17,891 nt of DNA from the NCBI GenBank assembly GCA_038046625.1, contig JBBSVV010000049.1:2672-20562 (forward strand), given 5' to 3'. This DNA is from an archaeon. Lineage in GTDB: Archaea; Iainarchaeota; Iainarchaeia; Iainarchaeales; Iainarchaeaceae. Below, one piece after another: positions 1 to 16,001 of the stretch (its first letter is position 1; every line of letters starts with the position of its first letter). The position numbers and the translations under genes are program-made. Under the pieces are notes generated by a model. The model was not told the DNA's origin, did no database searches, and was given only the letters and a program-made list of their open reading frames with translations.

Positions 1-269
1 GCGCGCAAATCAACAAGCTCACCATCAAAGGGCTGCCTGTTCAAAGAAAGAACCCTTGAAAGAACCGCTTTGCCATCCTTATAACCCAGAGTATAAATTT
101 TTTCATCCGAAGGAAGCATTATCGCCTCATAGCCCTTCTCATTCCTGATGATTTCTTTAGAATACTTCTGGCGCATCTCATCCCAGAGCTGATTAAAAGG
201 TTTTTTTACGAATTCAAGCTCTTTACTGCCTTCTTTTTGCACATAAAGCTCGTTAAACCCGTAATGGCA
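1..269 (-). mobile_element. Intein (N-terminal splicing region) inserted in LonB after ...GDVRHDPLQ
   Basis: The conserved LonB continuation SGGLGTP is replaced by CHYGFNELYVQKEG...IYTLGYKDGKAVLSRVLSLNRQPFDGELVDLR, starting with Cys (codon 267-269). The site matches the Lon intein site known from Thermococcales. Block B and the C-terminal HN/S lie outside the window. Confidence 0.85.
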
Positions 270-884
270 TTGCAGCGGATCATGCCTCACATCACCAAGC
301 AATGCCCCTGCACGGGCACCCGTTGCCTCGAAGAACGGAGCAATCTTTTTCCCCTTGTTGTTTACAAGGAGCTTAGGAACAACAACGCCGCCCTTCACGC
401 GCATCTGCGCGCCAAGAGCAAAGCCCACAATCAAAAATCCGCCGAGAATCAAAGTGGCCGCATAAACAACATCCGGCATGAAACCGAGTGTCCAGAAAAC
501 ATAACTCAGGATGAACCAACCCAAAGGCAGAATGAAACCAAGAAGGCGCATATTATCCTCCTGTGTCTTTGCCTCGAGGCGCGACTCCTCCATAATCCTT
601 GTCCCGTCGCCCGCCTTCACAACACGCACTTTCGGGTTGTTCGGGTCCTCCTCATTCGGGTAAATCAGGGTATCTGTGAGGCGCTGCAGCGGCATTATTT
701 CGGACATGGCCTTTGCAAGCATTGATTTTCCGGTTCCCGGCAAGCCGACAAGAAGAACATTCCTTTTCTGCACCGCGGCCTTGCGAATCAGCTCAACGCA
801 GCGGTCCTGGCCAATGACCTGCTCCAAAAGCAATTTTGGGACAGGAACATCCTTGGTTGAAGCGAGCTTTAGAAGGTCAGGCAT
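1..884 (-). CDS. lonB: Archaeal membrane-bound Lon protease (LonB), N-terminal part, interrupted by an intein; 3' end lies outside the window
   Basis: Hand translation from ATG at 884: MPDLLKLASTKDVPVPKLLLEQVIGQD...RNVLLVGLPGTGKSMLAKAM (Walker A), YPNEEDPNNPKVRVV, two hydrophobic TM segments, then APFFEATGARAGALLGDVRHDPLQ, all LonB signatures. The frame is open to position 1. Confidence 0.95.
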   Translation of the reverse strand, partial: MPDLLKLASTKDVPVPKLLLEQVIGQDRCVELIRKAAVQKRNVLLVGLPGTGKSMLAKAMSEIMPLQRLTDTLIYPNEEDPNNPKVRVVKAGDGTRIMEESRLEAKTQEDNMRLLGFILPLGWFILSYVFWTLGFMPDVVYAATLILGGFLIVGFALGAQMRVKGGVVVPKLLVNNKGKKIAPFFEATGARAGALLGDVRHDPLQCHYGFNELYVQKEGSKELEFVKKPFNQLWDEMRQKYSKEIIRNEKGYEAIMLPSDEKIYTLGYKDGKAVLSRVLSLNRQPFDGELVDLR

Positions 885-907
885 AATTATGAATTATATA
901 AATAAGC

Positions 908-915
908 TATTTAAA
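908..915 (-). promoter_or_regulatory. TATA box of lonB (TTTAAATA), probably a leaderless transcript
   Basis: TTTAAATA on the minus strand about 24 nt upstream of the ATG at 884, with no SD. Confidence 0.6.
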
Positions 916-939
916 TGGTTGTAATTTCTGAGCAGAGAA

Positions 940-957
940 GCAAAATACTTATTTTGC
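940..957. promoter_or_regulatory. Perfect inverted repeat GCAAAATA-CT-TATTTTGC, operator-like
   Basis: 8-bp arms with a 2-nt spacer, between the divergent lonB and sigma promoters. Confidence 0.45.
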
Positions 958-973
958 AATACCAAACACAAAC

Positions 974-1012
974 AATATTTAACCCATGTGAGCGTTCTGA
1001 TATTTGAAGTGA
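974..1012 (+). promoter_or_regulatory. TATA-like box (AATATTTAA, 974-982) and SD-like GAAGTGA (1006-1012) upstream of the sigma gene
   Basis: The identical 9-mer AATATTTAA precedes the pilin operon (13870-13878). A GTGA-type archaeal SD sits 4 nt before TTG 1017. Confidence 0.5.
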
Positions 1013-1016
1013 GAAT

Positions 1017-2186
1017 TTGCCTAAGCCTAAACCACCTCAGAAAATAGGAAGAGTAAACCCTGATGAGATAAATGCCGAACGTGAACCGCTTCGGCACTAT
1101 TATAGCCAGATAAAAGGCCACAGGATTCCGGAAGCAGAAGAAATAAAGCAATGGGCCAGACAATACAGGGCATCACCCAATACCCCAAAAGGACTGGAAG
1201 CAAGGAATAACATAATTCAGCACAACCTTCGTTACTCTCACTCGATCGGGCAAAGATATTACCGCCTTATAAGAAACTTAAACGCTAGGACCACCACGGC
1301 CGACCTCATCCAGGCATCAAATGAAGGGCTTGTAAAAGCAGCTACAAAATATGACCCTGAAAGAGGAGCCACCTTCCTAACTTATGCGACTCATTACATG
1401 AGAGGGCATGTTTTGAGAGAGATTATTAAATCATTCATCATCAAGAAACCGCCATTTTATATCATAAAAATGCTCGAAAAAGAAATTGCGGAAATTGAAA
1501 ATTATGAGAGCAAAGGCAGAAAACCAACTAAAGAGGCCTTTAAAACCCTGCAAAAAAAGAAAGAAAGACTCGATATAATTCAGAGAGCAAACAGAATCCT
1601 CGACATTGATGCCCCTTTGCGAGAGGGAGAAGAACTTTCACTTCATGACAGGGTTTCGAAAACAGGCGCTAGCGAAATGCGCGACCAGATCGAAATAGCA
1701 CTCTTTAGAAATAAATTAACCAGAGCACTTGGAATGCTTAACGAAAACGAGCGCAAAGTAATTGAAATGCGCATCATTGACCCACAAAAAAAGACATTTG
1801 AAGCTATAGGGAAAAGAATGGGGTTTTCAAAGCAAGGTGCACAGCAACTATTCGAACATGCTGTTGCAAAATTATCCGTAAGGCCTGAGCTTAGAGGGCC
1901 TCTTCAAAGAATAATGTTCGGAGACAGAAGAAGAAAAACCAGTAAAATCAAACGCCCAAATGAAACTCAAATCAAGCTGCTTAGAGACGCGATGGAGAGA
2001 ATTGGGTTTAGCGGAATAAGAAAAAGAGTCATACAACTGAGATTCTTGGAACCAAAACCCCTCAGCATTCGTGAAATAGCGTTGCAATGCAGATCCTACC
2101 CGAACCAAATAGGGCTATTGTTGCGCAAAATAAAAATACAGTTAAATGACCCTTCTCTTGACAATCTTTTTGCAATGGACTATTAA
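1017..2186 (+). CDS. Sigma-70 family RNA polymerase sigma-factor homolog (regions 1.2, 2, 3.2-like, 4, plus an extra C-terminal sigma4-like HTH)
   Basis: Region 1.2-like PLRHYYSQIKGHRIPEAEE; region 2.1 ARNNIIQHNLRY; region 2.2 DLIQASNEGLVKAATKYDPERG; region 2.3 FLTYATHYMR; region 3.2-like LDIDAPLREGEELSLHD; region 4 LNENERKVIEMR...TFEAIGKRMGFSKQGAQQLFEHAVAKL. TTG start. Confidence 0.9.
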   Translation: MPKPKPPQKIGRVNPDEINAEREPLRHYYSQIKGHRIPEAEEIKQWARQYRASPNTPKGLEARNNIIQHNLRYSHSIGQRYYRLIRNLNARTTTADLIQASNEGLVKAATKYDPERGATFLTYATHYMRGHVLREIIKSFIIKKPPFYIIKMLEKEIAEIENYESKGRKPTKEAFKTLQKKKERLDIIQRANRILDIDAPLREGEELSLHDRVSKTGASEMRDQIEIALFRNKLTRALGMLNENERKVIEMRIIDPQKKTFEAIGKRMGFSKQGAQQLFEHAVAKLSVRPELRGPLQRIMFGDRRRKTSKIKRPNETQIKLLRDAMERIGFSGIRKRVIQLRFLEPKPLSIREIALQCRSYPNQIGLLLRKIKIQLNDPSLDNLFAMDY

Positions 2187-2206
2187 CCAAAGGGCAAATC
2201 ACCCGC

Positions 2207-2329
2207 CTAAAGTTCTCCAATCGCCCTGAGCAGTTCCTCATGCCCTTTGACCAGTTTCTTGAATTCCCGGATTTCTTCCGAAACTATTCTGTACCGCGCC
2301 TCATCTTTTGAATTCCCTGATTTTTCCAT
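2207..2329 (-). CDS. Small 40-aa protein MEKSGNSKDEARYRIVSEEIREFKKLVKGHEELLRAIGEL; possible antitoxin-like peptide
   Basis: Hand-translated and below the ORF-track cutoff. It has a purine-rich SD-like GGAGTGG upstream and an amphipathic helical sequence. From memory (unverified) it resembles small proteins encoded downstream of Fic/Doc genes in DPANN archaea. Confidence 0.6.
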   Translation of the reverse strand: MEKSGNSKDEARYRIVSEEIREFKKLVKGHEELLRAIGEL

Positions 2330-2401
2330 TTTTTATCCACTCCCTTATCTCCTCGAGTGATCAACTCCAATAATGAAAGGTTTGTTTGGTTTGTAGACCA
2401 T
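2301..2401 (-). pseudogene. Fused gene remnants: an 18-codon start (MVYKPNKPFIIGVDHSRR*, 2345-2401) and an out-of-frame C-terminal fragment (SLEEIREWIKNGKIREFKR*, 2301-2360)
   Basis: Two protein-like fragments in different frames overlap around 2345-2360. The second is preceded directly by an in-frame TGA and overlaps the start of the 40-aa ORF. Confidence 0.45.
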
Positions 2402-2453
2402 ATCAGAGTAAGGAAAAGGACATTATTAATTATTTCACACCAAAAATAATGGC

Positions 2454-3371
2454 ATGAGCGAAAAGCCGAAAATAGTTTTTCTCGGGACAAGCGCCTCGAC
2501 GCCTACAAAAGAAAGGAACCTGAGCAGCATAGCCATCCGCTTCGAGGGCGAATGGCTGCTCTTTGATGCGCCCGAGGGAACGCAAAGGCAAATGATGAAG
2601 GCAGGAGTAAGCTATTTGAAAATAAACAAAATATTCATTTCGCACTTCCATGCAGACCACTTCCTCGGATTGGCGGGCCTGCTCGCAACAATGAACATAC
2701 ACGCACGCGACTGGCCACTCACTATCTATGGGCCGAAAGGAGTTGAAAAGAAAGTCGCGCATTCACTCGAAATGGCCATGCTGAAACCATTATTCGAAGT
2801 GAAATGCATTGAAGCAAAAAAAGGCGTGATTGTGCAGGAAGAAAAATATTCAATCGAGGCATTTCCCCTGAAGCACGAGATAGAGTGCTTCGGCTACGCG
2901 TTTATGGAGAAGGACAAGAAGGGGGAATTCAACAGGCAAAAAGCGATAGAACTCGGCATTCCTATTGGGCCGCTGTTCTCGGAACTGCAGAACGGAAAAA
3001 GCGTGCGCATAAATGGAAAAACAATAAAGCCGGAAGAAGTCATGGATTCTTCGAAAGGCCGCAAAGGGAAAAAAATCTCGATGGTTTTCGATACCTTGCC
3101 TTCAACAATTTACCACAAGGCGATACAGGATTCGGACATCCTTATCCACGAATCGTCTTTCCTCGAGGAGCGGAAGGACCGCGCGGAAGAAACAATGCAC
3201 TCGACAGCGCTTGACGCGGCTTTGGCGGCAAAAAAAACCGGCTGCAAGAAACTCGTGCTCTTCCATTTGAGCGCGCGCCACAAGGAAACCGAAAAATTCG
3301 AGAACGAAGCAAGGAAAGAATTCGGGAACTCGGTTGCGGCAACGGATTTGATGGAAATTGAAGTCGGGTAA
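2454..3371 (+). CDS. rnz: Ribonuclease Z (tRNase Z)
   Basis: FLGTSASTPTKERN, FDAPEGTQRQ, HFHADH, flexible-arm GIPIGP, DT, HESSF, HST and LFHLSARH motifs. Confidence 0.97.
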   Translation: MSEKPKIVFLGTSASTPTKERNLSSIAIRFEGEWLLFDAPEGTQRQMMKAGVSYLKINKIFISHFHADHFLGLAGLLATMNIHARDWPLTIYGPKGVEKKVAHSLEMAMLKPLFEVKCIEAKKGVIVQEEKYSIEAFPLKHEIECFGYAFMEKDKKGEFNRQKAIELGIPIGPLFSELQNGKSVRINGKTIKPEEVMDSSKGRKGKKISMVFDTLPSTIYHKAIQDSDILIHESSFLEERKDRAEETMHSTALDAALAAKKTGCKKLVLFHLSARHKETEKFENEARKEFGNSVAATDLMEIEVG

Positions 3372-3423
3372 CGCGGTTCACTAATCAAAAGTTTAATTAA
3401 CCAAAAAAGCGCATAAAGCTCAC

Positions 3424-4149
3424 ATGAAGGCAGTCATCATTGCCGCGGGCAAGGGCGTAAGGCTGAAGCCGATAACCGAGCAAATACCGAAATGCATGGT
3501 CGCAATAAAAGGAAAGCCCATGCTCGAACTCATCATGGAAAGAATAATCGGCGCGGGCGCGGAAGAAATAAACCTCATTGTCGGCTACAAAAAAGAAATC
3601 ATTGAGGACCACTTCGGCGCGGAATTCAACGGGGTAAAGCTGAACTACTTCGTGCAGAAAGAGCAAAAAGGCACGGCACATGCAGTCAGCCTGGCGGAAA
3701 AATACGTCGGCGAAAAATTCCTTGTGGCGAACGGAGATGTGCTCACGAGCACGGCGAACTACAAAAAGCTCCTTGAAACGGACGAATTCGAAAAGGTGGA
3801 CGGCCTGATTCTCGCGAGAAAAGTGAACGACCCGTGGAGATACGGCGTACTGAAAACAGAGGAGAAAAAAGTCAGGGACATAATAGAAAAGCCACTGCCG
3901 GGAGAAGAGCCGGGCAATTTGATTAACGCTGGCATTTACAGGTTCAAGAGCGACCTCTTTGAATCAATAAAGGAAACGAAGCTCTCGGAAAGGAACGAAT
4001 ACGAAATTGTTGATTCAATAAAAAACTATATGGCGAAAGGAAAGGACGTTGAGTTCAGGATGTGCGAAGGAACCTGCCTCGACATCGGCGACCTGGACGA
4101 CCTGAAAAGGGCGAACACCATGCTCGATGAACTGTTCCCAAAGCAGTGA
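3424..4149 (+). CDS. Sugar-phosphate nucleotidyltransferase (NTP_transferase; RmlA/GlmU N-terminal-like)
   Basis: MKAVIIAAGKGVRLKPIT..PK, QKEQKGTAHA, NGD, YGV, IIEKP, INAGIY and RNEYEI. No left-handed beta-helix domain. Confidence 0.9.
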   Translation: MKAVIIAAGKGVRLKPITEQIPKCMVAIKGKPMLELIMERIIGAGAEEINLIVGYKKEIIEDHFGAEFNGVKLNYFVQKEQKGTAHAVSLAEKYVGEKFLVANGDVLTSTANYKKLLETDEFEKVDGLILARKVNDPWRYGVLKTEEKKVRDIIEKPLPGEEPGNLINAGIYRFKSDLFESIKETKLSERNEYEIVDSIKNYMAKGKDVEFRMCEGTCLDIGDLDDLKRANTMLDELFPKQ

Positions 4150-4179
4150 ATGCGCAAAAAAACCGCGGAATTTTTGGAA

Positions 4180-4869
4180 TCACGTGCCGGTCTTGAATGA
4201 CTGGCCCGGTTTAAGTATTATAGGAACAGTCTTGAGGATGCTTTTCTCAATCCTCGAACTGAAATCCTTCGGGTCGGCGCCAATAGACTCGAATGAATTG
4301 TAATGCATCGGAATCACGAACTTCGGCTTCATTGTTTTTGTGGCGCGGACCGCGTCAACCACATCCATTGTCGAGTTCCCGCCGATGGGCAAAAGGGCCA
4401 CATCACACTTTATATCCGAAAAAGAATCCATCAGCGCAGTGTTGCCCGCAAAAAACAATGACTCGGCGTCCTTTGAAAAGCAAAAACTCAAAGGATAGAA
4501 AGAATTCGGGTAATGCGCCCCGAGAACGGAAACATCCACTCCGCGAAGATTGAACCTGCTGCCAACATTCACGGCGTGCTTCAGGTTAGATGGAATGTCA
4601 AGCTCGTTCAAAACAGATTCATGCGCAACAACGGTTGCGCCGTCCCTTTTCGCGAACGCCTCAACGGTTGCCCTGTCGAAGTGATCGAACTGCTCGTTGC
4701 TCACGCATATGAAATCAATGCCCTTTATTTTGTCGATGCCCACCGGGCACTTAAGCAAGGACCTGTAAGTGGCTTCCCCCTCTGGAATGTTGATGAAGGG
4801 GTCGACAAGAACATTCGTGTTCCCAAAAGCAATCTTAAAGAATGAGTGCCACAGAAACTGAATCTTCAT
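4180..4869 (-). CDS. Metallo-beta-lactamase-fold protein (UPF0173-like hydrolase) with a degenerate metal-binding motif
   Basis: Start reassigned to MKIQFLWHSFFKI (ATG 4869). Motifs LVDPFI, DVALLPIGG and PKFVIPMHY are present. HxHxDH reads NEQFDH and GDT reads GNT. Confidence 0.85.
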   Translation of the reverse strand: MKIQFLWHSFFKIAFGNTNVLVDPFINIPEGEATYRSLLKCPVGIDKIKGIDFICVSNEQFDHFDRATVEAFAKRDGATVVAHESVLNELDIPSNLKHAVNVGSRFNLRGVDVSVLGAHYPNSFYPLSFCFSKDAESLFFAGNTALMDSFSDIKCDVALLPIGGNSTMDVVDAVRATKTMKPKFVIPMHYNSFESIGADPKDFSSRIEKSILKTVPIILKPGQSFKTGT

Positions 4870-4988: not shown

Positions 4989-5771
4989 ATGAAAAAACTG
5001 TTTCTCCTCGCCCTTATGCTGGGATTCATCGCGGCAAACGCGTCCGCGGTCAGCGTGGAGCTCCTGAACATCTCGATTTCCGTTAACAACGAGGGATACG
5101 CAGGCATAACAGAAAACTACTTCCTCAAATTCACGAGCCCGTTCGAGGAGGATGACTTCAAGCAAAAGGCGGTAGGCAACTCCTCAAGCCTGCTCTCATG
5201 GGAAGCGTCCTACAATTTCTTTTACCCGCGATTTGCGGAAAGCGCCGGCAACGAGCTTGACACGTCCTCAATAATTTACGACGAGGGCTCCAAGACGCTC
5301 ACGCTCAAGTACGCGCTGAAAAAAACTTTTGCAGCCCTGCTCCGCGAGGAACAGAGGGCAAACTTCTTCAGGATAAATGACAGGCAGTTCGCATCATTCA
5401 ACGAGGGCGGAACAATAGTGATTCCCGAAGGCACAAACATACAACTCACTTTGCCGACAAACTCCGAACTCCAGAGCGACCCGCCGGAAAATGCAATTGT
5501 GAACGGCAACCAAATAATTTTGAGGGGAATCCAGACTAATGCACTTACCATAGACTACAAGGCACTCAAGCCCATTGCCTCAAACCCCTTTGAAATTTTC
5601 ACGGACAACTCAGGGATATACTTCATACTGTTGCCGGTGCTCATAATTGTCGCTATTTTTGCATACATCAAAAGGGAGGAAGTCGAGCAGAGAATCGAGG
5701 ATTATCTCGTGAAGCACTCGGAAATAAAACCCAGAACAGAAGACGAAGACATTGAGCTCTCGGACATCTAA
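4989..5771 (+). CDS. Signal-peptide-bearing, C-terminally anchored membrane protein of unknown function
   Basis: Signal peptide MKKLFLLALMLGFIAANASA, a beta-rich ectodomain, TM segment GIYFILLPVLIIVAIFAYI, and an acidic tail. Confidence 0.85.
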   Translation: MKKLFLLALMLGFIAANASAVSVELLNISISVNNEGYAGITENYFLKFTSPFEEDDFKQKAVGNSSSLLSWEASYNFFYPRFAESAGNELDTSSIIYDEGSKTLTLKYALKKTFAALLREEQRANFFRINDRQFASFNEGGTIVIPEGTNIQLTLPTNSELQSDPPENAIVNGNQIILRGIQTNALTIDYKALKPIASNPFEIFTDNSGIYFILLPVLIIVAIFAYIKREEVEQRIEDYLVKHSEIKPRTEDEDIELSDI

Positions 5772-6181
5772 CCGCGCTTCTTCTTGAACACGCGGTGCTT
5801 TTTTATTTCAGGGTGCGCAACACCCTCAAACTTCACATTCATTTTCTTCAGGACATTCTGGATGCTGTAATCATCCGTAACAACAACAAACTTTTCCCTT
5901 CTTCCTTTGAATTCATGCGCAAGCGCGACTATTGATGCGTCGGCATCGCTCATCTCCGTTCCGGACTCATTCAGCTTCGCAAAAGTTTTCTGCATTGACA
6001 AGGGGCACGGGCCCTGTATCTTCAGCAGGCCCTGCGCAAAAGCGTTCTCCGCGAGGCTCTTAGAAGCAATGTCCCTCCACTCATCAAAAACCTTTGAAGT
6101 GACAAAGTATTTGTTGCCTTTCTCGAAAGAAAAATTCGGGTTGTTCAAAAGCGCAGAAGCGTCGAGGATGAAAATCATCAT
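5768..6181 (-). CDS. nob1: Nob1-family PIN endoribonuclease without the C-terminal Zn ribbon
   Basis: ILDASALL, VFDE, MSDADASIVALA and VTDDYSIQNV are Nob1 PIN signatures. Confidence 0.85.
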   Translation of the reverse strand: MMIFILDASALLNNPNFSFEKGNKYFVTSKVFDEWRDIASKSLAENAFAQGLLKIQGPCPLSMQKTFAKLNESGTEMSDADASIVALAHEFKGRREKFVVVTDDYSIQNVLKKMNVKFEGVAHPEIKKHRVFKKKRG

Positions 6182-6639
6182 TTACGCCTTGACAATTCAT
6201 CAATCCATTGGGTCAGTAACGTGTGAAGTTTATTCAGGTTTTTCCAATTGCTGGAGTCTGCAGAAACCCCGCCCAAACCGGAGATAACCCCGCGTCTTTT
6301 TTTCTCCAAAAAACCCCGTACATCGGCAGTCCTTGTTCTGTACTCTGGATCGGCATGCATCATCAGTTCAATGCCCGCATGGGTTTCCAAAAGACGAATT
6401 TCACGGAGAATAGGGTCATGGAAGGACATTGCACGGTTAATGATGGCATATTCTTCCCGCAAAATCTTTCTTCCGAGAATTTTCCCGTATTCTTCGCGGG
6501 TACGCAGCCCTGTTCTTTCACCGGGTTTGGAAGCGGCATGTTCAGGTTCCCGGGGAGCAGTATGTTGTTCTGTGGAAACCTGCCCGCCCACGGGTTTTCG
6601 TGTAAAACGCAATTTAAGCATATTTAACCAACCGGGCAT
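6178..6639 (-). CDS. Hypothetical basic protein (153 aa)
   Basis: Its stop overlaps the nob1 start (ATGA). It is divergent from pheS across an AT-rich promoter region. No recognisable family. Confidence 0.7.
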   Translation of the reverse strand: MPGWLNMLKLRFTRKPVGGQVSTEQHTAPREPEHAASKPGERTGLRTREEYGKILGRKILREEYAIINRAMSFHDPILREIRLLETHAGIELMMHADPEYRTRTADVRGFLEKKRRGVISGLGGVSADSSNWKNLNKLHTLLTQWIDELSRRK

Positions 6640-13289: not shown

Positions 13290-13871
13290 ATGGCTGAAAT
13301 CTCGTTGACGAAAAACGAGTTCAAGGCGCTTTCCTCCGACACACGAGTGACAATACTCAAGTCTCTGGACGAGCGCAACTACACGCTCTCCGAACTCGCA
13401 AAAAAACTCGGCGTCGCCCCTCCAACGGCAAAGCAGCACACCACAATCCTCATGCAATCCGACCTCATTGAACTCAAGGACGAAGGAAGAAAATGGAAAT
13501 ACTACTCGCTCACAAGAAAAGGCAAGGACCTTTTGTACTCAAAACAGAAGAACACGAGCGTACTCATAATACTCGCTTCGAGCCTCGTCATGCTCGCGGG
13601 AATAGCAATGGTGTTCGGGCTGGCATTCAGCATTACTTTACAATCCGCAGCAATGCAAAACGATTCAGGAACACTCATGGCAGGCGCTTCCCCGCAGATA
13701 CAGCCTAGCCCTACGGCGGAAAAAATTGCAGGCAAACAGGACTTGGGAAACGAAACAGGATTTGGCACAGGGCAGGAACAGGAAGGCAATAATGCCTTAA
13801 TGGGCGCAATCCTCGTTGCTGCAGGCGCAATCGCAATAATATACACACTTAAATATCGTCAATCAACGTAA
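13290..13871 (+). CDS. ArsR-type winged-helix transcription regulator with two C-terminal TM segments
   Basis: FKALSSDTRVTILKSL...TLSELAKKLGV...KWKYYSLT.KG, followed by TM segments VLIILASSLVMLAGIAMVFGL and ALMGAILVAAGAIAIIYTL. Confidence 0.9.
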   Translation: MAEISLTKNEFKALSSDTRVTILKSLDERNYTLSELAKKLGVAPPTAKQHTTILMQSDLIELKDEGRKWKYYSLTRKGKDLLYSKQKNTSVLIILASSLVMLAGIAMVFGLAFSITLQSAAMQNDSGTLMAGASPQIQPSPTAEKIAGKQDLGNETGFGTGQEQEGNNALMGAILVAAGAIAIIYTLKYRQST

Positions 13872-13903: not shown

Positions 13904-14431
13904 GTGAACCGAAAAGGATTCTTCAGCATAATCGCGGCCCTGCTGTTCCTCACAATAGCCGCATCAGTTTCGAATGCGGAGCTTAAGGCGGGAACAAAGG
14001 CGGCACAAACCGACAGGGAAGTCCTTTCAATCAGGAAAAGCGCCTTTGAAAGAACCGAAGCGGAACTGTTCATCGACAAAAAAATAGAACGGTCCATTGG
14101 AAACACCGCACCAGAAAAAATAGTTGCGGAGGAAATAAACCGCGAAACAGCATCACAAATCATGGCGGGCTTCCGCGAACTTAACCTTGATGCAAAATCC
14201 TGCGCAAAAAACGGGAACACGATAATTGAAACAGGCCCCCTCGATGAAGGAAAGATTGCGCTGCTCACGAGAACTACCGCAATCAAAACCGGGCCAGTGG
14301 TGACAATAATTTACAGCGTAACCGGCGGCTTAAGCGCGGAGTTCCCCTGCGCGGAAATAACAAGCGGGAATTACTCCCTGTTTTTTGCCCTGCCCATCGG
14401 ATACGCAAAAACAGCCGTGGTGCCGGTATGA
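13904..14431 (+). CDS. Class III signal-peptide (type IV pilin-like) protein
   Basis: MNRKG/FFSIIAALLFL: short basic leader, KG cleavage motif, hydrophobic helix. GTG start. Confidence 0.75.
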   Translation: MNRKGFFSIIAALLFLTIAASVSNAELKAGTKAAQTDREVLSIRKSAFERTEAELFIDKKIERSIGNTAPEKIVAEEINRETASQIMAGFRELNLDAKSCAKNGNTIIETGPLDEGKIALLTRTTAIKTGPVVTIIYSVTGGLSAEFPCAEITSGNYSLFFALPIGYAKTAVVPV

Positions 14432-14745
14432 ACTCGCTCGAACTGATTTTCGCGCTCCTGCTGATTTCATCCTTTGGGGCGCTTGTCATACACGAGGAAA
14501 AAGAACTTTCAATGCGCACCATTTCCGCAGAAAAAGAATTCATGGAAAAATCCGATGCACAGGAATGTGCGGCGCTCGCAAACAATTATTACGCGGAAGC
14601 CGGAGGAAAATTAGAGGCAAAACTAGGCTGCACAAAAAACGGCACAAGGTTTTTGTCCGGGAACCACGCGGCCGAAACACTCGGGTTTGACGCTGAAATA
14701 GTGAACGGCGCAATAACAATACAAACGGAGGGCCACTATGGATAA
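14428..14745 (+). CDS. Pilin-like protein with an N-terminal SLE hydrophobic helix
   Basis: MNSLELIFALLLISSFGALVI. ATGA overlap with the previous gene. Confidence 0.7.
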   Translation: MNSLELIFALLLISSFGALVIHEEKELSMRTISAEKEFMEKSDAQECAALANNYYAEAGGKLEAKLGCTKNGTRFLSGNHAAETLGFDAEIVNGAITIQTEGHYG

Positions 14746-15193
14746 GGGCCTGTTCTTTTCCGCGGACGCGGCGGCATACGTTTTCATAATGCTGGTTATT
14801 CTCGGGCTTGCATTGCAGCACACCGCAGCAGGAACCGGAAAATTGTCCGAAAAAATGGCGTGGTACGAAAAAACGCTTTTTGCGGATTCGCTCGTGGAAG
14901 CGATTGTAAAGAACAGGAGCGCTGAAAAGCCGTGGCTCGGCGCCGCATACTACAATTCAGGCTTTCACAGGGTTGAAAGCAACGTAATTGACGGGAAACT
15001 GCTTGAAAGCATAACGCGGAAAGATTTCGGGAAATTCATGCTTTCCGCAATTTACGAAAAAAACCATGAGGGCATTGCATACCTGTTTAATGCAAACGGG
15101 AAAAACTGCGCCGCGTCCGAAAGGTTCGTGATCGTGAAAGGCGCGGAGGAAAAAAAGGAAATTTTGGGGGTTGTTGTCTGTGAAAACCTATAA
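14738..15193 (+). CDS. Class III signal-peptide (type IV pilin-like) protein
   Basis: MDKG/LFFSADAAAYVFIMLVILGL. Overlaps the previous gene. Confidence 0.75.
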   Translation: MDKGLFFSADAAAYVFIMLVILGLALQHTAAGTGKLSEKMAWYEKTLFADSLVEAIVKNRSAEKPWLGAAYYNSGFHRVESNVIDGKLLESITRKDFGKFMLSAIYEKNHEGIAYLFNANGKNCAASERFVIVKGAEEKKEILGVVVCENL

Positions 15194-15524
15194 AGGGCTA
15201 ATGACACTGGAAGCCATGCTCTCCCTGCTGCTCGTGGCGGCAATCATGGCAACAGCTGCCCCTCACAACGAAACCGCGGAAGAAACACTGCTGCAACACT
15301 CAAAAGCCTCGGACCTGCTCATAGTGTGGGCAACCGAAGGCACTATAGAAAATGAAATGATTCGGGACGCGGAACTTTTGCTCGGGAAAAACAATTTTGA
15401 GCTCTATGTGAACACAGAAAAAATTTACGGGGAACCGAGCATGGAAAAAGTTTCGGGAACAATATTAAGGCACAGGAACGGCAAACCCGAGGAAATAACC
15501 CTTTCAACCCGCATCAACAAATAA
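15180..15524 (+). CDS. Class III signal-peptide (type IV pilin-like) protein
   Basis: A probable GTG start at 15180 gives MKTYKG/LMTLEAMLSLLLVAA with Glu at +5. Confidence 0.75.
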   Translation: MKTYKGLMTLEAMLSLLLVAAIMATAAPHNETAEETLLQHSKASDLLIVWATEGTIENEMIRDAELLLGKNNFELYVNTEKIYGEPSMEKVSGTILRHRNGKPEEITLSTRINK

Positions 15525-16001
15525 AGCGCGGTTCTTTGAAATGCGAAGAGTTATTTTTCCGCGGAACTTAATCGAATCAAAAGTGTACTCGGCACTCGGA
15601 AGCCCGAAGGTTTTGGTTGACCCTGCATAGGAAAGAATCAAGGTTGGCGAAGGGACAGAAACTATTTCCCATTCCCCCTTTATTGGGGAGGAAACGATTT
15701 TTTCCGAGCCTTCGCCAAGCATGGAAATAATATTGATTGCCCCGTTCAGGGATGAAACAAATTCCTGTGCATTTCTCGCCTCCACGGAAAACATGGCGGC
15801 ATTGTAAAGCCCCGAAAGCGCGGCCAGGGAAACAGAAAGAAAGGCGATGAGCGCGGCCATTGCGAGCAGGAACTCGATGCTTGCCTGTGCCCTTGGACAC
15901 AATGCGGGTTCCCCGTCAACGGAACCCCCTTTATGGAATTTGGGTTGCTGCAAAGCAAACACGCCATCAACGGAACCCCCTTGCGGGGTTGGGTTGGTCA
16001 T
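15504..16001 (-). CDS. Class III signal-peptide pilin (QxSxE type) with an abnormally long leader
   Basis: RA/QASIEFLLAMAALIAFLSV after a 36-aa leader containing a repeat. The start overlaps the upstream stop (ATGA). Confidence 0.8.
   Translation of the reverse strand: MTNPTPQGGSVDGVFALQQPKFHKGGSVDGEPALCPRAQASIEFLLAMAALIAFLSVSLAALSGLYNAAMFSVEARNAQEFVSSLNGAINIISMLGEGSEKIVSSPIKGEWEIVSVPSPTLILSYAGSTKTFGLPSAEYTFDSIKFRGKITLRISKNRALFVDAG
15906..15990. repeat. Two 16-nt direct repeats (TCAACGGAACCCCCTT at 15916-15931 and 15967-15982; period 51 nt), each part of a hairpin
   Basis: Directly visible. Stems are GGGTTCC/GGAACCC (15906-15927) and AACCCC-GCAA-GGGGGTT on the minus strand (15974-15990). 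Confidence 0.85.

Follow-up and report, generated by a model that had tools for sequence, protein, structure and literature searches.

The window analysed here is a stretch of 17,891 nucleotides (nt) from the genome of a small groundwater archaeon of the Diapherotrites/Iainarchaeota in the DPANN group (GenBank assembly GCA_038046625.1, contig JBBSVV010000049.1, positions 2,672 to 20,562 of the forward strand). Positions 1017..2186 of its plus strand encode a real, intact and highly divergent protein of the sigma-70 family. The protein has the order sigma1.2-sigma2-sigma3-sigma4, with 1.2 and 3 as probable assignments, and this is followed by a basic linker and by what is, on moderate statistics, a second, degenerate sigma4-like helix-turn-helix (HTH) domain. 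The gene occupies a genus-specific insertion between lonB and rnz that goes back to the ancestor of the genus Iainarchaeum. It is maintained under purifying selection yet evolves fast, as judged from one species pair. With middling confidence we favour the reading, derived from sequence and models, that the protein serves the archaeon itself as an accessory transcription regulator which binds DNA in a sequence-specific way, and that it takes no part in a bacterial sigma cycle.

The gene is an uninterrupted open reading frame (ORF) of 389 codons (protein label P0001) that starts with TTG. Its start is fixed by the ortholog of the congener, Candidatus Iainarchaeum andersonii SCGC AAA011-E11, which has an ATG at the equivalent aligned position. 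(The window genome, this congener and the more distant GW2011_AR10 are labelled G000, G001 and G038, respectively.) The protein scores above the cut-off with Pfam Sigma70_r2 (PF04542; residues 69-136, 34.9 bits, cut-off 24), with Sigma70_r4 (PF04545; residues 237-286, 32.9 bits, cut-off 24.1) and with the NCBIfam superfamily model TIGR02937 (65.8 bits, cut-off 42.9). A search of the Protein Data Bank (PDB) with phmmer retrieved 55 distinct sigma chains at E<=1e-10, RpoS among those matched. The best match is SigA (8h3v_G, E 7e-20), and regions 2.1-2.4 are free of gaps in the alignment. An AlphaFold2 model built from a 116-row alignment has a mean predicted local distance difference test (pLDDT) score of 79.3, with values above 90 across regions 1.2, 2 and 4. 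The best Foldseek matches of the full model are sigma-A and sigma-S chains (E ~1e-11), and among the 177 PDB matches at E<=0.001 ranks 1-49 are, without exception, a sigma chain or chain F, G, E or L of an RNA polymerase (RNAP) complex. The first-pass annotation of this DNA, made by a model from the letters and their translations, had described an intact 389-residue sigma-70 homolog, and the domain scores together with a SigA/RpoS-like alignment and fold from end to end bear it out. The Pfam scan that it had proposed agrees for regions 2 and 4, but the models of regions 1.2 and 3 (PF00140 and PF04539) gave no match, and no sigma match was obtained by Pfam with the N-terminal 68 residues or with region 3 alone. 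Regions 1.2 and 3 are backed by end-to-end NCBIfam alignments, by helices of the model and by sub-profiles cut from alignment A1, which match at E 2e-8 and 3e-10; the sub-profile matches are partly circular, because A1 includes the query itself. One sigma-family gene, and no second, was found in the window genome. A reading of the protein as a component of a defence system (MzaA) was rejected, since it matches solely through the shared sigma domains (PADLOC 35 bits; NCBIfam 53.5 against 800).

The domains follow one another on the plus strand. Region 1.2-like helices occupy residues ~16-56 (1062..1184); the model has helices at 15-33 and 40-52 with pLDDT >90, and the alignments to RpoS models begin at residues 19-24. 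The sigma2 domain (residues 57-140; 1185..1436) keeps the core-binding-type helix DLIQASNEGLVKA, and the conserved W and Q of regions 2.3 and 2.4 are replaced. Sigma3 with a region 3.2-like linker (residues 141-225; 1437..1691) is assigned from the alignment to region 3/3.2 of SigA, and its helices between residues 147 and 192 are modelled with a pLDDT of 65-81. The sigma4 domain (residues 226-290; 1692..1886), with an altered recognition helix, is modelled with pLDDT >90. A basic linker of low pLDDT (residues 291-315; 1887..1961) opens with the motif 'RPELRGPL', which is invariant in three related proteins described below, and leads into the second, probable sigma4-like domain, a degenerate four-helix HTH (residues ~316-389; 1962..2183).

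The assignment of this tail rests on profile and structure comparisons of moderate significance. Pfam detected no sigma match in the C-terminal 102 residues, and a BLASTP comparison of region 4 with the tail was not significant (E 0.96). A region-4 profile cut from the family alignment matches the tail of the congener at E 7e-7 and that of the window protein at E 0.003, in a search space of two sequences. Hhalign aligned region 4 with the tail over 50 columns at 81% probability (E 1.3e-5). The tail alone, modelled by AlphaFold2 with two relatives, is predicted to form a four-helix domain with a pLDDT of ~90. Seven of its ten best Foldseek matches in the PDB are SigA region-4 structures (WhiB-SigA region 4 complexes; E 0.13-1), and two more of the ten come from RNAP complexes, in which they form the region-4 portion of a sigma chain. 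Further down the list, isolated region-4 domains superimpose closely on the tail, 4g8x_A for instance with a target-normalised template modelling score of 0.80 and a root-mean-square deviation of 1.8 Å.

The same tail is present in a 404-residue homolog from GW2011_AR10 (CP010424.1), a closed, one-contig Diapherotrites genome from another family of the order. In alignment A3, which begins at residue 286, 25 of 104 positions are invariant, and BLASTP aligns the core of the tail at E 4e-5. The 'PELR' motif after region 4 and an L..F motif at the C-terminus are common to both lineages, and across the window sigma, the congener ortholog and the GW2011_AR10 homolog 24 positions within residues 291-389 are invariant. 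These three proteins, with an overall identity of ~26%, are defined here as the tandem-sigma4 subfamily. Searches with tail and full-length profiles found the layout in three of 196 genomes of the order and three of 215 genomes of the phylum, so that GW2011_AR10 is the only other lineage with the full arrangement. Outside the three input genomes the tail profile gave weak matches only across the order (E>=5.9e-4), and a word-index search that compared the tail with 5.8 billion proteins returned, among 29 candidates, the query itself and protein P0003 only. The GW2011_AR10 homolog differs in its context, which consists of purine synthesis genes and a ZIP transporter, and its Pfam region 2 score, 21.8, lies below the cut-off of 24.

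The window protein resembles bacterial SigA/RpoD, RpoS and SigB in the probable order of its regions, 1.2-2-3-4, in the ungapped alignment of regions 2.1-2.4 and in the patterns of regions 3.2 and 4.1. Unlike the bacterial group 1/2 sigmas, with which it shares ~25-30% identity, it reaches only about a quarter of the equivalog cut-offs, although the RpoS and RpoD equivalog models span residues 19-287; the group 1/2 threshold is missed with RpoS TIGR02394 (96.1 against 378.7 bits) and with RpoD_Cterm (92.9 against 354). An alignment with 114 other sigmas contains 50 columns that are at least 85% conserved, and the window sigma retains 28 of them. Those retained include D96, L97, N102, G104, L105, A108, D113, G117, F120, T122, Y123 and A124 in regions 2.1/2.2, and also positions in region 4.1. 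Within the subfamily the sigma2.2-type helix (D96 L97 I98 Q99 .. N102) and a region 3.2-type motif, D198-A199-P200, are invariant. The replaced columns include the tryptophan of region 2.3 (present in 97% of the other rows), which is Y127, the glutamine of region 2.4 (89%), which is G130, and the R/E/R/R set of the region 4.2 recognition helix (85-95%), which is K272/Q273/G274/Q276. We take these positions to be those with which bacterial sigmas melt and recognise the -10 element and recognise the -35 element. The tryptophan pair is also missing in the archaeal relatives. The protein has an isoelectric point of 10.2 and is net positive on all five segments, with a charge of +12 on residues 291-389. 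It differs from group 1/2 sigmas in this basic character, in its additional sigma4-like domain and in the lack of region 1.1, for which there is no room because region 1.2 begins at about residue 16.

A further difference from group 1/2 sigmas is that no bacterial core RNAP was found in the host. The window genome (0.99 Mb, 57 contigs, 84.6% complete) has one Rpb1_1-type gene in an 872-residue frame, the size of archaeal Rpo1N, together with one TBP, one TFB and a TFE-alpha; the C-terminal domain of the bacterial alpha subunit (RNA_pol_A_CTD) was not found in it. This is the TBP/TFB-type machinery that the first-pass annotation gave for archaea.

The gene is flanked on the left by lonB (3..884, minus strand), whose N-terminal 294 residues lie in the window and which continues beyond its edge (TIGR00764 LonB, E 1e-57), and on the right by rnz, encoding RNase Z (2454..3371, plus strand; TIGR02651, 342 bits, cut-off 293; 98% identical in the congener). 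The same two neighbours had been named in the earlier reading. The divergent lonB-sigma intergenic region (885..1016) contains a putative TATA-like element, ATATTTAA (975-982), which is identical in the congener, and a putative Shine-Dalgarno-like motif, GAAGTGAG (1006-1013), two of whose eight bases differ there; both had been noted at first pass. The intergenic part is nearly invariant between the two species, and the whole aligned stretch is 91% identical. A scan for bacterial-type promoters gave three sites against 2.9 expected and is uninformative.

The absence of the gene from relatives defines the insertion. A search of the 22 other family genomes detected RNase Z in 19, one of which is the sigma-bearing congener. 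In 13 of the 18 sigma-less genomes lonB lies divergently upstream of rnz at a distance of 61-1024 nt (less than 300 nt in 10 of them); in the other five lonB was not within the 1.5 kb fetched, and one of these had only 376 nt of flank. No sigma match was present at the lonB-rnz locus in any of the 18, and the gene is missing from 21 of the 22 other family genomes. The congener is collinear with the window over 18 kb and carries the ortholog in the identical place; a comparison of gene order in relatives had been proposed at first pass. In one genome of the family that lacks the window-type sigma (G015), another Sigma70_r2-positive ORF, a 384-residue frame, is located on the same contig as rnz, ~6 kb upstream of it (L039, G015:C15; L124).

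The gene also stands out in composition. Its GC content is 0.412 and its GC content at third codon positions (GC3) is 0.392, the 3rd percentile of 699 ORFs in a genome with a mean GC3 of 0.567 (standard deviation 0.067); GC3 is low in the orthologs as well (0.39 in the congener, 0.35 in GW2011_AR10). The contrast to rnz reported from hand counts is real but smaller than was claimed, since the rnz windows have a GC content of 0.45-0.49 and not 0.50-0.60. The horizontal acquisition proposed in the first-pass annotation is supported by this atypical GC3 and by the lack of the insertion in all 18 sigma-less relatives examined, but a bacterial donor is not borne out. A donor search gave 29,287 hits at E<=1e-3, among which every non-orthologous one is ~30% identical or less, and the only proteins that share the C-terminal module are archaeal. 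A tree of 18 archaeal and 45 representative sigmas, from which rows shorter than 250 residues, L048, L020, P0006 and every second representative were left out, has 35 of 60 inner branches without support. The archaeal rows have branches of 2-5 substitutions per site (2.3 for the stem of the window sigma), the window sigma is not joined to the GW2011_AR10 homolog, and no donor is indicated. No donor can be named, because the best non-self match is 30% identical and the tree does not resolve. The starred branches of the tree do force at least two origins of sigma genes in the order. The best non-self match, P0006, is a 446-residue protein on a 4.5-kb metagenome contig. It appears to be duplicated internally, as it runs from region 2 to region 4 twice in the alignment, which could reflect either a fusion of tandem sigmas or an error of assembly.

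Comparison with the congener gives a ratio of nonsynonymous to synonymous substitution rates (dN/dS; NG86) of 0.34 for the whole gene at a dS of 0.30. Among the segments, region 2 has the lowest ratio, 0.13, and the values for region 3, region 4 and the tail are 0.36, 0.51 and 0.54, respectively. RNase Z, an NTP transferase and the two subunits of phenylalanyl-tRNA synthetase (PheRS) have values of 0.06-0.14. Protein identity is 81% for the sigma, and 96-99% for these four neighbours and the adjacent metallo-beta-lactamase (MBL) hydrolase. The dN/dS check that had been suggested came out, for this one species pair, in favour of a maintained gene.

The favoured reading can be set out as follows. 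A sigma gene entered the interval between lonB and rnz in an ancestor common to the genus Iainarchaeum and has since been kept by purifying selection. The protein would run no bacterial sigma cycle, because the host has only archaeal RNAP, TBP, TFB and TFE, the melting and -35 residues are lost, there is no acidic region 1.1 and every domain is strongly basic. It would instead be an accessory regulator, in line with the repurposed DNA-binding regulator proposed at first pass, a role suggested by two sigma4-type HTH units in a basic chain, by the lack of an auto-inhibitory acidic region and by the fact that the RNAP of the host has initiation factors of its own. The two HTH units in one chain may stand in for the dimer of an ordinary HTH regulator, and the conserved sigma2.2-type helix could possibly dock on the clamp coiled-coil of RNAP. 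The duplicated sigma4, the lost melting residues and the basic charge suggest a shift from DNA binding scaffolded by RNAP to autonomous DNA binding.

Several points weigh against a regulator of this kind. The strongest is that sigma2 is the most constrained part of the protein, including the helix that in bacteria binds the clamp coiled-coil of core RNAP; the region 3.2-type 'D-A-P' motif is kept as well and, with sigma2, fits an RNAP-bound role better. The selection figures come from a single species pair, in which region 4 and the tail are only weakly constrained, and the second sigma4 depends on an hhalign probability of 81% and Foldseek E-values of 0.13-1. Bacterial RNAP parts are to be called 'not found' rather than 'absent', because the genome is 85% complete. 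Among the nine sequencing runs that were found, no RNA run was listed, and the expression from host signals proposed at first pass finds no backing there. Nor did a DNA target, a partner gene or a conserved neighbour emerge; the contexts in the window and in GW2011_AR10 are different.

The constraint on sigma2 and the retained region 3.2 motif leave some room for an RNAP-bound role. The protein would then serve the archaeal enzyme as a functional sigma-like factor of initiation or specificity, with sigma2 on the clamp coiled-coil of Rpo1N and the sigma4 domains placing the enzyme on a special set of promoters. We regard this as unlikely. The clamp coiled-coil is a universally conserved site, to which sigma binds in bacteria, and TFE and Spt5 in archaea. 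The sigma2.2 helix and the region 3.2-type motif are invariant in three proteins with only 26% overall identity, region 2 has the lowest dN/dS, 0.13, and the complete sigma1.2-2-3-4 order is probably retained. On the other side, the conserved positions for melting and for reading the -10 and -35 elements are replaced, a full TBP/TFB/TFE set is present, and the gene is an accessory insertion that 21 of the 22 other family genomes lack. To our knowledge no complex of a sigma factor with archaeal RNAP has ever been described. A complex predicted from Rpo1N (residues 1-420; alignment A5) and the sigma (residues 15-145; A1) scored 0.00 and, being without controls, carries no weight either way. A further proposal, which we consider rather doubtful, is that the tandem-sigma4 proteins of Iainarchaeota are RNAP-associated, with the conserved sigma2.2-type helix on the clamp coiled-coil of the archaeal, Pol II-like enzyme and the two HTHs recruiting or blocking RNAP at specific promoters. 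If this were true, they would be the first sigma-derived factors to work with a non-bacterial multisubunit RNAP.

It is similarly doubtful that the gene survives from a horizontal transfer as a remnant without function, or nearly neutral, whose decay is still to come. Such a remnant would account for the gap between 81% identity of the sigma and 96-99% of its neighbours, for dN/dS values of 0.51-0.54 in region 4 and the tail, for the very long branch (the stem of 2.3 substitutions per site), for the patchy distribution and for the atypical GC3. It would not account for a frame that has remained intact in both species, alike in start and length, for a dN/dS of 0.34 overall and 0.13 in region 2 at a dS of ~0.3, or for a C-terminal module that is conserved into a different family, 24 of its positions within residues 291-389 being invariant.

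It is improbable that the gene is the cargo of a virus or another mobile element, such as a viral factor of sigma type that stayed behind in the chromosome. The best score with any single family profile was obtained with the phage sigmas of phrog_351 (110.6 bits, E 1.8e-31, residues 33-324), the insertion is lineage-specific, GC3 is low in all three genomes, and a further indel of ~230 nt lies beside the gene in the window genome. Phrog_351, however, is a generic RpoD-like profile of 928 positions that scores about as the RpoS models do, and no phage genes lie near the window gene. No integrase, capsid, transposase or other mobile-element gene flanks the insertion, and no convincing direct or inverted repeats were found there. 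Moreover, the gene is a single one between housekeeping genes, in the identical place in two species, and the GW2011_AR10 homolog is among purine-synthesis genes. The ~230-nt stretch, which is missing from the congener, falls within 2200-2425, between the sigma stop and the rnz start. It is single-copy in the window genome and contains a 40-residue minus-strand ORF (2207-2329) that has no PHROG match. Its 5' end (2300-2345) has ~90% matches on several unrelated short metagenome contigs whose flanks are all different.

The earlier suggestion of an effector sent to a bacterial partner, in which it would hijack or titrate the bacterial core RNAP, found no support and is very improbable. In its favour, region 2.2 preserves most of its core-binding-type helix, and some DPANN archaea are episymbionts, as stated in the abstract of PMC8204110. 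The same abstract, however, gives other archaea as the known DPANN hosts. No signal peptide or secretion-associated neighbour was seen, and a review (PMC6349945) regards an independent way of life as possible for the congener, Ca. Iainarchaeum andersonii.

The chance that the arrangement is an assembly chimera or bacterial contamination of the bin, which a 100-N scaffold gap just upstream of the window and the GC content of the gene, below that of its surroundings, might suggest, is negligible, because contigs from several runs in two studies cross both junctions, the single-cell genome of the congener shows the identical arrangement, and the flanking genes are all archaeal. The junction continuity that the first-pass annotation had wanted checked is provided by Logan contigs: one of 17,653 nt from public groundwater run X1 spans window positions 132-4500, and one of 2,330 nt from run X6, which was not flagged as a possible source, spans 156-2485 with one mismatch. 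The congener ortholog, 81% identical, is on a 135-kb contig. The archaeal genes on the contig of the window comprise LonB, RNase Z, archaeal PheRS alpha and beta, the large subunit of replication factor C (RFC) and Orc1/Cdc6. The 100-N gap (C49:2572-2671), the only one of the contig, breaks lonB.

Bacterial-type sigma genes in archaea are already a known phenomenon: they were reported in 2013 and 2021. Within the order, Sigma70_r2 scores above the cut-off in 44 of 196 genomes, and 14 of 55 high-quality genomes have a match at E<=1e-3. The 2013 Nature abstract of Rinke et al. reportedly lists 'complete sigma factors in Archaea'; AAA011-E11 is said to be among the single-cell genomes of that work, and its sigma ortholog is probably one of theirs. 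A review (PMC6126073), in its accessible part, credits Rinke and colleagues with the first description of archaeal sigma factors. Castelle et al. 2021 (PMC8204110), in the portion available, reported sigma-70 genes (fam00359) in DPANN archaea with mis-binning excluded and no anti-sigma found, and called their mechanism unclear. The window gene is of the same kind in that its sigma-70 domains are found on a genuinely archaeal contig with archaeal markers and bridged junctions, in a genome with a normal TBP/TFB/TFE set and no anti-sigma found. It differs in belonging to the Iainarchaeota, the available portion of the 2021 account (PMC8204110) stressing Woesearchaeota. The tandem sigma4 tail, the insertion site and the selection figures have no mention in the accessible parts of that account or of the review (PMC8204110, PMC6126073). 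New here are the assignment of the lineage, the map of the insertion, the figures on selection and the tandem-sigma4 layout, which is shared with GW2011_AR10.

Some of the 'archaeal' sigma genes counted in the order may be cases such as L009 (G076:C74), a 285-residue sigma on a 2.8-kb contig. It is much closer to bacterial sigmas than the other archaeal ones are, scores 228 bits with the family profile and is nested within the bacterial representatives of the tree. Given the very short contig and a bin that is ~5% contaminated, it is probably a contaminant or was transferred recently. Some genomes of the order have tandem sigma-family ORFs on one contig, three in L055 (G128:C47) and two in L015 (G059:C20).

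The role of sigma-like proteins in archaea without a bacterial RNAP has been a question since 2013, and our literature searches found no functional study of an archaeal sigma factor; in PMC11606122 'sigma' occurs solely as a chemical symbol. The locus described here does not answer it but makes for a clean test, with a full-length gene in single copy that is under selection, has a defined insertion point and has an ortholog in a named single-cell genome. A demonstration that the protein instead binds archaeal RNAP would be of major importance for our view of how transcription initiation evolved.

Two other regions of the window attracted notice. At 5768-6639 (minus strand) a PIN-domain gene (PF17146/PF13638) is preceded by an unannotated 153-residue ORF that overlaps it by 4 nt, a toxin-antitoxin-like layout; the dN/dS of the 153-residue ORF against the congener is ~0.95-1.1, and the PIN protein has a weak PADLOC match, 'C3a166, poss. 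crRNA proc.'. Four same-strand ORFs of 175, 105, 151 and 117 residues (13904-15524, plus strand), three of them overlapping, and an ORF on the opposite strand beside them (15504-16001, minus strand) have no Pfam match. An ArsR-type HTH gene (13290-13871) is located upstream of this run.

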